This document shows, in pieces, positions 3,655-59,510 of a DNA stretch of 64,000 nt (positions within the stretch are counted from its first letter, which is position 1; the number at the start of each line of letters is the position of its first letter). The DNA lies in IMG/VR virus record IMGVR_UViG_3300032116_015796, positions 16,257 through 80,256 of that record. One strand, given 5' to 3'. The position numbers and the translations under genes are program-made. The notes beneath the pieces are model-generated. The model searched no databases, had not been told where the DNA came from, and saw nothing but the letters and a program-made list of their open reading frames with translations. This stretch comes from a virus.

Positions 3655-5144
3655 TTACTATAATTTATTCAACACATAAAGATTCAGAATATAATAACAA
3701 ATTTAGACAACATTTGTTACAAACTGTTGGCTTAAAAGATGTTCAAATCTTAGAATATCAAAATAATAATCAATATTCACTTGCACAAGTTTACAATAGT
3801 GGAATAACCGAATCAATTTATGATATTGTTGTTTGTTGTCATAATGATATTAAACTTGAAAAAAATTGGGGTAAAAAATTACTTGAAGATTTTTCAAACA
3901 ATACAGAATTCGGAATAATTGGAAAAGCAGGTTCTTGTTATTTCCCTGAATCAGGAGTTTATTGGGAAAAGATGAATAAGACCATGGTTGGTCAAGTTTA
4001 TCACCATCCTGAAGGACAGAATAAATGGTTGAGTCAATATTCATCTAAATTACCGTTTTTAATACCCGTTGTTACTGTTGATGGTTTGATTATTTGTTTT
4101 GATAAAACTAAAATCAAATATAAATTTGATGAGTCTTTTGGTAAGTTCCATTTTTATGACCATGGATTTTGTTTACCTAATTACATTAACGATGTTAAAA
4201 TCGGTGTTACCTCATCATTTGAGATTACTCACCAATCTGTAGGTCAACCAAACCAAGAATTTTATGATAGTAAAGAAAAATTCTTAAAAAAATGGGGACA
4301 TATGTTACCAATGGATTTAAAACCAAAAGAAGTTTTTTTTGAAAATATTGTAGAAAAACCTATTAAGAACATTGGTAAAGTGGCGATTATCATACCTACA
4401 AAAGGTAAAACGGATATGTTATTTGAGTGTGTAAAATCTTTTTACACCCACTGCAATTCAGACCTGTTTGATATTATAATTGCCGATACGGGGTCATCTG
4501 AAGAAGAAAAGGAATGGATAAAAACCAACATTTTAAATTTAGGTAATATTAAATTAATCGAATATGATTATTATAATTTTGCTAAAGTTAATAATGATGT
4601 TGTTAAAAATTACACAAATGATTACGAATTTATTTTATTCTGTAATAATGACATAAAAATACTAAACAATGTTGTTTACGGATTACTTGAAAACTTTAAA
4701 AAGTATCCCCAAGCAGGGACTATAGGTTGTAGACTTCATTATGAAGATAACACCGTTCAACATAATGGATTGGCTGCGAAAGTGGATTCTAACAAATTTT
4801 TTAGGGTTGATAACAAATCCACAGGTTCTTACTATTCATACACCATAAATAGTAAAGAGGTTTTAGGTAATACCGCCGCTTTATTTATGGTTAGAAAAAA
4901 TGTTTTTCAAAAATTAGGGATGTTTAATGAACAGTATTCAAACTGTTTTGAAGACGTAGAATTTAATCTTAAATCAATTGTTACGGGTCACAGGAACTAT
5001 ATTTGTGGTAATTGTGTTGCATATCATTATGAAAGTAAAACTAGAGAAAGGAATACCGAAGTTGAGAAACAAGATTATTTTAATAACCTAATACCTTTTG
5101 TTCAAAAATACCTTGATAAATTTATCACTAAATTATATATTTAA
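3651..5144 (+). CDS. Two-domain GT-A/GT2 glycosyltransferase
   Basis: N domain CHND...FHFYD; C domain IIIPT, DTGS, NND, EDVE. Confidence 0.85.
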   Translation: MITIIYSTHKDSEYNNKFRQHLLQTVGLKDVQILEYQNNNQYSLAQVYNSGITESIYDIVVCCHNDIKLEKNWGKKLLEDFSNNTEFGIIGKAGSCYFPESGVYWEKMNKTMVGQVYHHPEGQNKWLSQYSSKLPFLIPVVTVDGLIICFDKTKIKYKFDESFGKFHFYDHGFCLPNYINDVKIGVTSSFEITHQSVGQPNQEFYDSKEKFLKKWGHMLPMDLKPKEVFFENIVEKPIKNIGKVAIIIPTKGKTDMLFECVKSFYTHCNSDLFDIIIADTGSSEEEKEWIKTNILNLGNIKLIEYDYYNFAKVNNDVVKNYTNDYEFILFCNNDIKILNNVVYGLLENFKKYPQAGTIGCRLHYEDNTVQHNGLAAKVDSNKFFRVDNKSTGSYYSYTINSKEVLGNTAALFMVRKNVFQKLGMFNEQYSNCFEDVEFNLKSIVTGHRNYICGNCVAYHYESKTRERNTEVEKQDYFNNLIPFVQKYLDKFITKLYI

Positions 5145-15716: not shown

Positions 15717-16520
15717 ATGGAAAAATTCGATATCTCGGTAATACTACCAATTAAGTCGGCAGCGGCTAGAGGATTTGATGAACTTTTTGAAAAAGCGATT
15801 GAATCTATTAAAATACAAACTTTACAAATTAAAGAACTAATCATTGTTCATACAGACGAAACCGCATTAGTAGAGTTTTTAGACCGATTTAATTTCGGTG
15901 ATATAAATGTTAAAAGAGAAGTTTGGACAAAACCGCCAAGCTACGCGGAACAAATTAATCACGGAGTTAGAGTTTCTACAGGTAATTGGATTTCATTGTT
16001 TGAATTTGATGATGAATACTCTAAAATTTGGATTAAAAACGTTAAACTATATTCAGAATCATATCCTGAAATTGACGCATTCTTACCAATTGTTGTCGAT
16101 ATTGATGAAAAAAACCAATTCGCTGGTTTTACAAATGAAGCAACGTTTGCATTAAACATTGCATCTGATATGGGTATGTTGACAAATGAAACATTACAAA
16201 CTTACCAAAATTTCCAAATATCAGGTATGGTTATTAAAAAATCAAAATTTATTGATTTTGGTTTAATTAAACCAAGTTTCAAACTTACGTTTGGCTACGA
16301 ATTCTTTTTAAGAATGACACATAATAATGTTAAATTCATGTCTATTCCAAGAATAGGGTATAAACATGTAAACCTAAGAGAAGGTTCTATTTTTTGGAAT
16401 TACAAAAATGGTGACAATGTGTTATCTGAGGATGAGGTTAAATTTTGGGTTGAGTCGGCTAAGAAAGAATATTTTTTCATCAATGACAGAGCCATAAAAT
16501 ACGAACCTTCCGAAGTTTAA
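15717..16520 (+). CDS. GT2 glycosyltransferase
   Basis: ISVILPI, SIKIQT, INHGV, EFDD (DxD variant). Confidence 0.8.
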   Translation: MEKFDISVILPIKSAAARGFDELFEKAIESIKIQTLQIKELIIVHTDETALVEFLDRFNFGDINVKREVWTKPPSYAEQINHGVRVSTGNWISLFEFDDEYSKIWIKNVKLYSESYPEIDAFLPIVVDIDEKNQFAGFTNEATFALNIASDMGMLTNETLQTYQNFQISGMVIKKSKFIDFGLIKPSFKLTFGYEFFLRMTHNNVKFMSIPRIGYKHVNLREGSIFWNYKNGDNVLSEDEVKFWVESAKKEYFFINDRAIKYEPSEV

Positions 16521-55480: not shown

Positions 55481-55871
55481 GGGGGTAACTCTGGAATTGA
55501 CTGGCATAGATAGTCATTCGGGGCACGTCAGGGACGAACTAACCCTGTCAAAATGGTTCAAAAACGATAAACGGCAACGTTATCAACAAACTTTCTGCGG
55601 TAGGTCTTATCCGTACTGAGGAAAGCGTAGCAGTAGCCTAATTGAATTAGGTTACTAAAGGGGTCGGCAGACATATAACCTTGCAACAGAAGTCGTAGTT
55701 GTGGTGGATTACTATTGAACCCTAAATCGAATGGTAACCATTGTTTGTTGATTTACGATGGTGAAGAACAAATCAACTATTTTTGGAACATTAGAAAATG
55801 TTAACCTAAGCGTGTAGTCCTTAATGGGTAATGTGAACAGGACTTGGGTTCGAGTCCCAATACCTCCACCA
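55481..55871 (+). ncRNA. ssrA: tmRNA; tag (A)GNVINKLSAVGLIRTEESVAVA
   Basis: GGGGGTA/TACCTCC-ACCA acceptor stem with G3:U70, GGAATTGAC D-loop, T-arm GGGTTCGAGTCCC, tag ORF at 55573-55641. Confidence 0.93.
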
Positions 55872-57052: not shown

Positions 57053-57640
57053 TTAGTTATGACTTATAGGTCCAACAATTGGTGGTGTAGGGTTGCTTGT
57101 TCCGTTGTAAATATTAAATGGTGTCGCCAAATCACACGAAGTACTATTCCAACTTCCCCATAACCCATCTGAACCAGGTGTAACTTGTATTAATAAATTT
57201 TGTGGTGTACATAAAGTGGATACTGTTACTTGAAAACAAAAAGTCCATACACATGAACCATTGTCCCCAAAGTCATTCGCAGGATTACCATCAATAGTTA
57301 AATCAAAGAAATATCCAGGACCTATAGGACCCACAGGTGTAGGACATGATGTCATCCAAATCCATTGTCCTCCTGAAACCGCTCCTCCACAATTTGCGGG
57401 TGGAGATACGGGTGTTAATCCTGTCCATCCAGGACCTAAAGTTAAATCAAAACCCTCAATCCAATTGGACCCCGTTTGAGTATACCCATTCATGGTATAA
57501 CATACGTTAACTACAGTACCAGGAGTATATCCACCAACAGGTGGTGTTGGGGTTAGTGTAAAAGTTTGAGCCCCATTACACTGACTAAAAACAGGTAATG
57601 ATAAAAGAAAAAATAATATAGTGAAAATCGTTACCTTCAT
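57053..57640 (-). CDS. Secreted Cys/Gly/Pro-rich beta protein ending in PISHN
   Basis: Signal peptide ending VFS-QC; same C-terminal motif as its neighbour. Confidence 0.75.
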   Translation of the reverse strand: MKVTIFTILFFLLSLPVFSQCNGAQTFTLTPTPPVGGYTPGTVVNVCYTMNGYTQTGSNWIEGFDLTLGPGWTGLTPVSPPANCGGAVSGGQWIWMTSCPTPVGPIGPGYFFDLTIDGNPANDFGDNGSCVWTFCFQVTVSTLCTPQNLLIQVTPGSDGLWGSWNSTSCDLATPFNIYNGTSNPTPPIVGPISHN

Positions 57641-57685
57641 TACTATAAATACGAATATTTCACTATAAAGTTGTCTGTTATAAAC

Positions 57686-57728
57686 AAAAAAAGGGAGAAT
57701 ATTGGTGGTTAGTCAATTTCTCCCTTTT
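57686..57728 (-). terminator. Terminator closing the RNA locus
   Basis: AAAAGGGAGAA...TTCTCCCTTTT stem; the A run at 57686-92 is the minus-strand U tract. Confidence 0.8.
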
Positions 57729-57729
57729 A

Positions 57730-58095
57730 ACCGTGGAACTTTCTCTGTCGGTAAGTCCAACCCGATACTTTTGTTAGTGAGACAAAAGTAACCATTGTCG
57801 TATGGTCGAGTTTGTACAATTTAAACGTCTATGTTTTTTATCATTTTTTCATATTTAAACACCTACTAAAATTTTTGTGGTTATCACAGAAATCCACATC
57901 TTAAAAAAAGGTGTCGTACAGTTTTCTGTCTATTGCCAGACAAAGTCATGTCGAGGACTCAAGCGGCGCTCTTATTTCCTTTACTTTTTTCCTTAAGGGT
58001 AAAAATGTGTGACAAAGAGTCTGAACCATCACGAATAAAACCCTGATTGTTCTGTTTTGTTCTCAGTTTAAACTCATGTTAGGTGTGATACAATT
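57730..58095 (-). ncRNA. Unidentified structured ncRNA candidate (~320-370 nt)
   Basis: No ORF; nested stems found by eye (CTTTGTC/GACAGAG, AGTCC/GGACT, ACACCT/AGGTGT, TGTGG/CCACA, TGTCTG-GCAA-TAGACA, three-way junction); boundaries approximate. Confidence 0.5.
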
Positions 58096-58122
58096 CTAAA
58101 GAACACCTATCGGAGTCACTTG

Positions 58123-58194
58123 TTGCGGGAGAAGGATTCGAACCTTCGACCTCAAGGTTATGAGCCTTGCGAGCTTCCACTGCTCTATCCCACT
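58123..58194 (-). tRNA. tRNA-Met(CAT), initiator (fMet)-like; CCA not encoded
   Basis: 72-nt cloverleaf AGTGGGA-TA-GAGC..GCTC-G-CAAGG-CTCATAA-CCTTG..GAAGG-TTCGAAT-CCTTC-TCCCGCA-A; 1:72 mismatch and A11:U24. Confidence 0.92.
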
Positions 58195-58202
58195 ATATGG
58201 CT

Positions 58203-59061
58203 AAGGCTGAGATTATACCTTTTATTTGAGAACCTTTCGAGTCATTATTGCTTCTACTCTTATCCACTTCCTTTTGAGAAGTATTTCTCAGTGACGGTCT
58301 TTTAGGTTTACCACTCCTTGAGGTCTTGGTTACTCTCTTATTACTCAACTCTCTTCGAGGATGCCTCCCCAATTAATCCTTGCGGGATTAGAGGTCTTTG
58401 GTAAAACTACACTCGGACTTGGGGTCTTTGTGTGCAATGAACGGCTCATTACTATGTAGTCACCTTTCACCAAAACCTGGTAGACACTTTTCCTTAGATT
58501 TCATAATTAATAGGACTTAATTTTTAGTCATAAGTTTTGTGTCGTGGATGTATCGAAGTAGTGGTCTACCCTAAGCTCAGTCATCTTTTGAACAACTGAA
58601 TACTAAACTACTCCGTGAGATGTCCCCACCTCCATATTTCAAGTTTACTTCGTACCAAGACCTTGGTGGGTCTTTGATAAGGATAGTAGCGACACCACTC
58701 GTTCTCTATCTTACCTTTCGGTTTTAAGTCCACTTTCATATTGGAACCCGCAATTATGTAATTGGATAACTACACCTCTCACTTGATTCCTATGGGTTAT
58801 TCTTATTGGTGTTCCCACCTCAACCAAACAATCCACATTGCTTGGTCACCCAACCACTTTCCCTAAAGCGTCGCCCTCAGTACTGAAGGTCGGGTGATAT
58901 CCCACTTGTATACTCGAGTTCGGTTTCCCAAACCGCAGAATCATCAACACGGGTGATTCCACTTTATCCTACTTTCGTAGTTTATTTAACGACCATATAC
59001 GGCCGATTATCTTTTACAGGTTATCATCTCCCCGAAGGGGTACTTTCACCTGATGGATAAT
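58203..59061 (-). ncRNA. Large structured ncRNA, GOLLD-like (~860 nt)
   Basis: No credible ORF; GC-richer than flanks; many GNRA/UUCG hairpins on the minus strand; abuts a tRNA; 3' hairpin AAGGTATAATCTCAGCCTT resembles my recollection of GOLLD 3' ends; family needs a covariance-model search. Confidence 0.7.
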
Positions 59062-59067
59062 TCAATC

Positions 59068-59137
59068 TTTCAAAGAACTCTATCGGACGTTTCCGATTTG
59101 TTTTACAAAGTTAAGAACAATTTTTTTAATTTCCAAA
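59068..59137 (-). promoter_or_regulatory. Promoter/hairpin/boxA cassette 1
   Basis: TTTG-N20-TAACTTTG-TAAAACA, ATCGGA-AACG-TCCGAT hairpin, GTTCTTTGAAA. Confidence 0.8.
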
Positions 59138-59158
59138 TTTTTCTCAAACTTTTTTTTC

Positions 59159-59275
59159 GGTTATTATAACTGTTGCGGTAACATGTCTCATTTACACTTT
59201 AAATGCGAAGGATTCCCGTAGTCACTTTCCTCACATACAACAGTAGCCCTACGGACCTAGACTGTTTCTATAACC
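59159..59275 (-). ncRNA. Small pseudoknotted ncRNA candidate (~117 nt)
   Basis: GGTTAT/ATAACC terminal stem, AACA-GTCT/AGAC-A-TGTT, CCGTAG/CTACGG, CATTTA/TAAATG and pseudoknot ACTGTTGT/GCAACAGT; has its own promoter cassette. Confidence 0.55.
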
Positions 59276-59281
59276 AATTTT

Positions 59282-59349
59282 TTTAAAGAACTCATCGGAC
59301 ATTTCCGATTTGTTTTACAAAGTTAAGAAGAACTTTTTAATTTTCCAAA
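59282..59349 (-). promoter_or_regulatory. Promoter/hairpin/boxA cassette 2 (direct repeat of cassette 1)
   Basis: TTTG-N20-TAACTTTG-TAAAACA, ATCGGA-AATG-TCCGAT, GTTCTTTAAA. Confidence 0.8.
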
Positions 59350-59366
59350 TTTTTCTTCAACTTTTT

Positions 59367-59510
59367 TTAAGATACTACGTATACATCGTCAGTACCGTGA
59401 AATTTAGCTCTTGCCATTGCAAGAACGGCACTACAAGTGTAATACTTCACACCATCATTCCCATAGTAGTAGAACAAAGGTTCGTCAATTACTTGTGTTT
59501 CGTTACTCAT
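59367..59510 (-). CDS. 47-aa small protein MSNETQVIDEPLFYYYGNDGVKYYTCSAVLAMARAKFHGTDDVYVVS
   Basis: ATG-TAA ORF below the track cut-off, directly downstream of cassette 3. Confidence 0.65.
   Translation of the reverse strand: MSNETQVIDEPLFYYYGNDGVKYYTCSAVLAMARAKFHGTDDVYVVS

Follow-up and report, generated by a model that had tools for sequence, protein, structure and literature searches.

A predicted multi-pseudoknot RNA family encoded behind GOLLD RNA in large freshwater phages

Results

A stable-RNA transcription unit in a phage genome

We analyzed a 64,000-nucleotide stretch (the window) of an IMG/VR virus record (IMGVR_UViG_3300032116_015796, positions 16,257 to 80,256). The record has 80,256 bases and is 27% complete by CheckV, which indicates a large phage. 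The minus strand of the window carries a promoter, a hairpin, a boxA-like leader, GOLLD RNA, tRNA-Met, the element studied here and an intrinsic terminator, in that order. We call the element, which was flagged by an earlier sequence-only reading of this DNA, X. It occupies 58121-57686 of the minus strand (~436 nt). Positions within X (p) are counted from p1 = 58121, such that the window coordinate is 58122 - p. The other stable-RNA features are as follows.

59068-59135, minus strand: start of the transcription unit, with a TAACTTTG-type promoter, a 6-bp hairpin (TCGGA..TCCGA) and a boxA-like GTTCTTTG; conserved in related loci
Upstream of the Rfam match to about 59066, minus strand: GOLLD 5' domain, ~450 nt, homologous in 45 other GOLLD loci
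58204-58615, minus strand: GOLLD RNA, Rfam match RF02032, corresponding to the 3' domain (312.9 bits, model positions 1-416 of 416)
58122-58194, minus strand: tRNA-Met (CAU), found by ARAGORN and by Rfam (61 bits, 58194-58123)
55481-55871, plus strand: tmRNA gene with a 22-residue tag, found by ARAGORN and Rfam; a few kb from GOLLD and convergent with it

GOLLD (Rfam RF02032) was described by Weinberg et al. (2009), and a 14-mer cage has been determined by cryo-EM (Kretsch et al., bioRxiv 10.1101/2024.12.08.627333). The sequence-only reading had called the RNA upstream of X "cassette 1" and had not recognized it as GOLLD. The leader of the GOLLD unit (TAACTTTG-type promoter, hairpin and GTTCTTTG) resembles the leader of an rRNA operon. 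A leader with promoter, hairpin and GTTCTTTG is also present in L224, L131, L066, L090, L137, L184 and L016, and GTTCTTTG is retained in nearly all related loci, including L112 and L124, in which the promoter differs. The tmRNA gene is convergent with GOLLD in nearly all related loci, with X present or absent.

Genes neighbouring the unit encode a type IX secretion CHU_C domain and a PKD-like domain, and the promoters in the window and related loci are of the TAnnTTTG kind. Based on these domains and promoters, the host of the large freshwater phages that carry GOLLD and X is probably a member of the Bacteroidota.

Homologs of X

We found homologs of X in other GOLLD loci. Loci were fetched from IMG/VR by a GOLLD motif and searched with X by single-sequence nhmmer. 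Nine GOLLD loci matched (E down to 2e-20), each just 3' of GOLLD, and the homologs spanned X end to end. We widened the search by iterating a profile, scanning IMG/VR twice for motifs and scanning JGI/ENA metagenomes and GTDB genomes once each. Two of the search patterns also matched coding genes; those matches were checked and dropped. In total, we collected 51 loci from IMG/VR and lake metagenomes. They comprise 29 distinct sequences, which group into 15 clusters at 90% identity. GTDB genomes gave 29 exact-pattern matches, none of them to a homolog, and no cellular or prophage copy of X was found there. A collection of phage records contained no homolog of X; the sole long match was to part of GOLLD only, in one 635-kb uncultured phage.

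Members of the family are about 415-465 nt long and have sharply conserved blocks, with a mean column identity of about 61%. X spans the sequence from AAGUGACUCC to the intrinsic terminator and, in most loci, starts 2-6 nt past the tRNA body. The extent given by the sequence-only reading (57730-58118) captured a real element that is longer at both ends, reaching from 58121 to the end of the terminator at 57686. The homologs fall into a long subfamily (the window, L194, the L224 and L131 groups, L066, the L090 group and the L124/L172 groups) and a short subfamily (L030/L024, L155, L157, L183, L137, L184, L118/L120 and L016).

Coding potential, known families and folding energy

The copy of X in the window has no ORF of at least 40 aa, which bears out the earlier description of an ORF-free stretch 3' of tRNA-Met. 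Stop-free frames in the homologs are 38-80 codons long, and their length is not conserved.

We found no match to X among known RNA families. A permissive cmscan of 57500-59400 against Rfam 15 (4227 models, E<=10) gave no match inside X; it reported only GOLLD, the tRNA and chance-level matches outside X. The GOLLD model (RF02032, threshold at least 150 bits) had no match in 57686-58121 even at E<=10, and there was no match of X to the ROOL model at E<=10. Rfam ribozyme models, including those for HDV-like, twister, hammerhead, hatchet and pistol ribozymes, also gave no match to X at E<=10, and the strand order of P2, H1 and P4 is not that of the HDV double pseudoknot. In full-text searches for papers on GOLLD and ROOL, and in the cryo-EM paper, we found no mention of an RNA trailing GOLLD.

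The predicted folding energy of X was unremarkable. The minimum free energy of the window copy was -88.7 kcal/mol versus a mean of -84.4 for shuffled sequences (z = -0.70), and 23/100 shuffles were as good. The case that X is more than a chance structure is therefore made by its homologs and covariation, not by folding energy. The sequence-only reading would have given up its proposal if the energy were no better than that of shuffled controls and there were no conserved homologs; the energy is indeed no better, but conserved homologs exist. Judged by sequence comparison, X is a genuine structured non-coding RNA family that is absent from the Rfam catalogue, in agreement with the earlier claim of a large structured RNA of no known family. 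X would be a new family within the large ornate phage RNAs.

The 1.41-kb GOLLD-tRNA-X stretch is contained in 20 public runs. Six of these are labelled RNA and contain 47-63% of the sampled words of the stretch. Because X makes up only 30% of the stretch, these figures do not establish its transcription.

Conserved pairings in X

We found compensatory base changes in X above the level of controls, as expected of a structured RNA. The predicted parts, all on the minus strand, are listed below.

58116-58120, minus strand: PK_A, the 5' end AGUGA (p2-6), complementary to the H9 loop; AGUG/CACU is paired in 27-29/29 and both strands are invariant, so it is predicted without covariation
58072-58116, minus strand: P2, ACUC (p6-9) with GAGU (p47-50), enclosing H1; 100% paired (29/29), with one double change (AUUC/GAAU in L194)
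Inside P2, minus strand: H1 hairpin, p13-19 with p36-42; arms differ by lineage and complementarity is kept
58009-58032, minus strand: P5 hairpin, p90-96 with p107-113; arms CGUG/CACG, UUGGU/ACCAA, UAGGU/ACCUA and GGUG/CACC across lineages
57943-57960, minus strand: Hb hairpin, p162-166 with p175-179; arms AGUC/GACU, UGUC/GACA and GGUC/GACC, with three types of outer pair in the short subfamily
57858-57915, minus strand: Hout helix, p207-213 with p258-264, with the invariant hairpin inside it; the arms have a different sequence in almost every lineage and are still complementary (automated counting gives only 75% for the short subfamily because MAFFT columns are shifted)
57876-57898, minus strand: invariant hairpin UGUGG/CCACA with a 13-nt loop ending in AUAA (p224-246); 100% paired (29/29), four pairs never vary
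57828-57832, minus strand: PK1, AUAGA (p290-294) with loop bases UCUGU (p232-236, window 57886-57890); paired in 29/29 in the structure-blind alignment
57799-57827, minus strand: PK2, CGU (p295-297) with ACG in the H8 loop (p321-323); invariant in 29/29, so predicted without covariation
Within 57799-57827, minus strand: H8, p316-320 with p327-331; double changes in 4/5 pairs
57767-57789, minus strand: H9 hairpin, p333-340 with p348-355, with a conserved 7-nt loop, CUCACUA; double changes in 8/8 pairs (model-based alignment) or 5/7 (MAFFT)
57736-57765, minus strand: H10 hairpin, p357-360 with p371-374; double changes in 4/5 pairs
p364-369 with p381-386, minus strand: PK10, between the H10 loop and a strand downstream of it; confined to the long subfamily, with arms that vary yet are complementary in all 8 of its lineages
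57724-57686, minus strand: intrinsic terminator, stem p398-404 with p423-429 (GGGAGAA/UUCUCCC) and U-tract p430-436 (U7); stem and T run are present in every homolog

Four tests bear on these pairings. A covariance model of the 3' core (H8, H9 and H10), made from a MAFFT alignment, was used to realign 25 sequences, and this alignment is thus fitted to the model. In it, 16/18 pairs change on both sides, and covariation was 0.465 compared to 0.215 for shuffles (0/500 as high) and 0.07-0.13 for slid partners. In a plain, structure-blind MAFFT alignment of 29 sequences, we scored six helices that invariant blocks hold in register; 94.5% of cells were paired, versus 25-46% with slid partners. For the short subfamily, a full model with four kinds of bracket and 18 helices (91 pairs) was 85.7% paired versus 37-48% with slid partners.

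The remaining test used tables of helix arms obtained by a window-guided helix search and inspection, a by-eye fit for which the per-sequence shuffle p-values are weak. The arms of these helices (H1, P4, P5/P5a, Ha, Hb, the Hb-loop pairing, Hout, Hpost, PK10 and the terminator-loop pairing) vary among lineages yet remain complementary, and the helices are probably real. In these tables, the Hb loop pairs with the strand after an A-run (CCAA/UUGG, CCGA/UCGG or ACCA/UGGU), and Hpost crosses Hout. Several strands of X have two possible partners. Automated folding was less informative: RNAalifold on a raw 21-sequence MAFFT alignment, in which variable helices were misaligned, gave only 21 pairs; voting with 4-bp stems was too noisy in the AT-rich X; and averaged base-pair probabilities gave local hairpins only.

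PK1 is the best case for a pseudoknot among those predicted in X. Its 3' strand is the five bases just 5' of the invariant CGU, about 55 nt downstream of its partner in the loop of the invariant hairpin. Three of the five pairs show double changes, which affect 10, 9 and 11 sequences and give as many as four types of pair, and the short subfamily agrees.

The 3' end of X appears to be knotted as well in the long subfamily. The terminator has an 18-nt loop, and UAACC in that loop (p411-415) pairs with GGUUA upstream (p390-394); the whole part spans 57686-57732. Since this loop exceeds 8 nt, a simple terminator scan misses the terminator of X. The pairing is GGUUA/UAACC in the window and L194 and GGCUA/UAGCC in most long-subfamily lineages; the MAFFT alignment of this subfamily has the window and L194 one column off register here. 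The short subfamily has neither this nor the other terminator-proximal pseudoknot and keeps the core. Taken together, the comparisons predict a compact RNA with at least four pseudoknots, perhaps seven, and with both ends tucked into the structure.

The conserved 5' motif contains a 10-nt palindrome, AGUUUAAACU, at window 58068-58077 (p45-54). It is found in 13 long-subfamily sequences, and the short-subfamily version is non-palindromic. The palindrome might enable X to pair with itself, or could simply follow from the presence of P2. The Hx hairpin has palindromic loop cores (GUAC, GCGC, UUAA and GUAUAC), each unremarkable relative to shuffles (P 0.07-0.77; 0.005 for L066). These loop cores are weak hints that X might oligomerize.

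About three of the eight pairings drawn in the sequence-only reading survive comparison with the homologs: ACACCT/AGGTGT (Hout, also H1), TGTGG/CCACA, and a local hairpin at the GCAA site, although its loop is not conserved. The other five fail. CGTG pairs locally, in P5, and not with the distant CACG. Similarly, the AGTC of AGTCC/GGACT pairs locally in Hb, and GGACTT pairs with AAGTTC. AACTCGA/TCGGGTT is not conserved, TCGG pairing instead with CCGA (H10), and neither CTTTGTC/GACAGAG nor TGTAC/GTACA is conserved in homologs.

That reading had also placed a "spacer boxA" in X. The 19-nt string on which this was based does resemble the GOLLD leader and is present at 58114-58096; within X, GTTCTTTAG is one base off the GTTCTTTGA of that leader. 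However, GTTCTTTAG occurs only in the window copy, and L194, the nearest relative, and all other lineages have unrelated letters there. X also differs from an rrn-type boxA leader in that no promoter precedes the box, which sits in the 5' arm and loop of H1. A GYTCTTTRA-type box downstream of a promoter was not found in X homologs, whereas the GOLLD leader does keep its box.

X is linked to GOLLD and not to an intact tRNA

Of the copies of X, 45 have 520 nt or more of preceding DNA, and in all 45 the GOLLD 3' domain lies there in the same orientation as X. Among copies with enough upstream DNA, X was seen only behind GOLLD, and Rfam confirmed GOLLD in 13/13 representative X loci. This strict linkage is the most informative fact about X. 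The distance from GOLLD to X was 12 nt in 3 of the 45 loci, 83-93 nt in 36 and 641 nt in 6.

These distances reflect what lies between the two RNAs. The 83-93-nt gap contains tRNA-Met. In L118, L120 and L199, X begins 12 nt after GOLLD without a tRNA; the L118/L120 lineage retains a 12-nt remnant only. In the 641-nt group, a gene for a 178-aa GIY-YIG/NUMOD3 (SegE-like) homing endonuclease lies between GOLLD and the remains of the tRNA, whose 5' half it replaces:

L024 1522-2058, minus strand: homing-endonuclease gene, 178 aa; the same in L072, L096, L109, L130, L163 and L200

The stop codon of this gene in the L024 group is the TAA of the former tRNA-Met anticodon loop.

ARAGORN found no tRNA in L024, L118 or L112, all of which retain X. 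In L112, a tRNA-Met-like sequence that ARAGORN does not see lies between GOLLD and X (about 4213-4300), and the close relative L062 has an intact tRNA; the tRNA of L112 may be decaying. X is thus independent of an intact tRNA, as three lineages keep X without one. Release of X by tRNA 3' processing, as the sequence-only reading had proposed, is plausible given how closely X follows the tRNA in most loci, but these lineages indicate that it is not the general route.

X is an optional module, inserted after the last stable RNA of the unit and before its terminator, since closely related loci without X run straight to the terminator: a similar terminator hairpin directly follows tRNA-Met (L067, L038 and L015) or GOLLD (L047 and L023). 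A covariance model of the X 3' core detected nothing in about 100 other GOLLD loci, which thus yielded no divergent X. A search for a covarying pairing between X and GOLLD gave only 5-6-nt complementarities between invariant segments.

Downstream genes vary among loci, so X is not a leader of one particular gene. We rejected X as such a leader because the gene that follows differs by locus (a secreted-protein gene in the window; other ORFs in L112 and L118). A T-box or other tRNA-sensing leader was also rejected: there was no RF00230 match, the AUG by P2 is changed in some lineages, and the downstream genes vary. A codon-anticodon interaction, suggested by the complementarity of UUAUGAG to the tRNA-Met anticodon loop, was dropped since the AUG is ACG in one clade and the GAGU is used by P2. 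The AUG beside P2 is ACG in the L224/L131/L150 lineages, whose tRNA keeps CAU.

Discussion

X as a module of the GOLLD unit

Our results are probably best explained if X is an independently folding, multi-pseudoknot non-coding RNA that forms the optional last module of the GOLLD unit in large freshwater phages and acts together with GOLLD. X would be transcribed by read-through from the GOLLD promoter. At loci with an intact tRNA, cuts by RNase P and by 3' tRNA processing would part GOLLD, the tRNA and X, leaving AAGUGA as the 5' end of X. The H9 loop would hold this end and the terminator hairpin would secure the 3' one, so that X might form a compact, nuclease-resistant particle. It could then serve as a partner, adaptor or cargo of the GOLLD cage and would not regulate a neighbouring gene. 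As to its role, our best guess is that X is a partner of GOLLD or a third domain of it.

In a more specific form of the partner idea, X would be a hetero-partner dedicated to GOLLD: a second RNA subunit that would dock on the cage, cap it or lie within it, and that may dimerize via the palindromic hairpin loop of the long subfamily. We put this forward tentatively, as a possibility that we consider unlikely on present evidence. If true, this would make GOLLD and X the first natural quaternary machine built of two RNAs and no protein, and would give a first clue to the cargo of the cage.

X resembles two other large phage RNAs. Like X, GOLLD is large, phage-borne and rich in pseudoknots, and lies beside tRNA and tmRNA genes; the two share a transcription unit and phages. 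X differs in that it has no sequence or model match to GOLLD, is half the size and is found in only part of the GOLLD loci; GOLLD oligomerizes, whereas for X the palindromic loop cores are only weak hints of this. ROOL RNA (Weinberg et al. 2017, PMC5737381), whose cage is also described by Kretsch et al., shares with X multiple pseudoknots, a size of about 0.4-0.6 kb, a place in phages or prophages near tRNA islands, and the lack of a known protein partner. X has no match to the Rfam model of ROOL and is found in freshwater phages and only behind GOLLD, whereas ROOL is reported in the literature from rumen and Lactobacillales.

Alternative explanations

X might instead be the third, 3'-terminal domain of an extended GOLLD variant, covalently joined or tethered by the tRNA, that decorates or fills the cage. 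The lineages without an intact tRNA are consistent with this: X begins 12 nt past GOLLD in L118, L120 and L199, and it is retained in the L024 lineage, in which the tRNA is disrupted. The whole unit has a single promoter and a single terminator, and tRNAs are sometimes found in the GOLLD linker (Kretsch et al., bioRxiv 10.1101/2024.12.08.627333). However, 36/45 loci have an intact tRNA between GOLLD and X, where RNase P would normally cut. The pairing of the 5' end of X inside X points to a fold that is complete in itself, X is absent from many GOLLDs whose 5' and 3' domains are the same, and no covarying contact between X and GOLLD was found. We therefore regard a third domain, the main alternative, as unlikely, though worth keeping in view.

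A role in cis, as a 3' element of the GOLLD operon that controls stability or termination or blocks exonucleases and does not act in trans, seems improbable to us. The position of X fits such a role, since X fills the space from the last stable RNA to the operon terminator, with which it always ends. Two loops of the long subfamily, those of the terminator and of H10, are predicted to be pseudoknotted with flanking strands. But a plain terminator hairpin suffices in relatives without X, and the short subfamily lacks both terminator-proximal pseudoknots yet keeps the core. Known 3' protective elements also need far less than the roughly 400 nt and more than 15 conserved helices of X.

Alternatively, a self-cleaving ribozyme in the 5' part of X could trim the tRNA or GOLLD that precedes it. 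HDV-like "theta" ribozymes are found immediately 3' of phage tRNA genes, are about 70 nt long and have their first nucleotides in a pseudoknot. X shares this position and arrangement, starting within a few nt of the tRNA 3' end with first bases that are invariant and predicted to be pseudoknotted. In contrast to theta ribozymes, X is about 430 nt long (5-8 times the size of small ribozymes), matches no ribozyme family at E<=10 and persists after loss of the tRNA. The order of its strands (P2 5', H1, P4 5', P2 3', P4 3') differs from the nested double pseudoknot of HDV, and loci without X manage without such a device. A ribozyme is thus very improbable. We give next to no credence to the notion that X is a non-functional spacer or decaying remnant whose structure arose by chance. 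The folding energy close to that of shuffled sequences, and the ease with which AT-rich sequence makes short helices, would allow it; conservation across 15 lineages down to about 60% identity with invariant blocks, compensatory changes far above the shuffle and slide controls, and the fixed position of X behind GOLLD all argue against it.

Implications for GOLLD

GOLLD has been without a known function since 2009, and the cage structure of 2024-25 raised the question of what the cage holds or binds. As a conserved and apparently knotted RNA of ~430 nt that is tied to GOLLD, X is the most specific candidate so far for a GOLLD co-factor. X offers a new handle on the role of GOLLD, and natural GOLLD loci with and without X allow comparison. 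X would also add a class to the short list of large pseudoknot-rich RNAs of bacteria and phages, and it indicates that phage "stable RNA operons" (GOLLD, tRNA and X, with tmRNA nearby) are modular.

Other genes near the stable RNAs

In two GOLLD loci without X, an Rfam group I intron overlaps or abuts the phage tmRNA gene (L086 8352-8575, 95 bits; L116 2963-3186, 86 bits), and the tmRNA of these loci may be interrupted by the intron. In the window, a gene for a T4 Rnl1-type RNA ligase (61932-63005, minus strand; Pfam RNA_lig_T4_1, E 1e-19) immediately precedes the stable-RNA cluster on its upstream side, a position that would fit a theme of tRNA repair or translation takeover.
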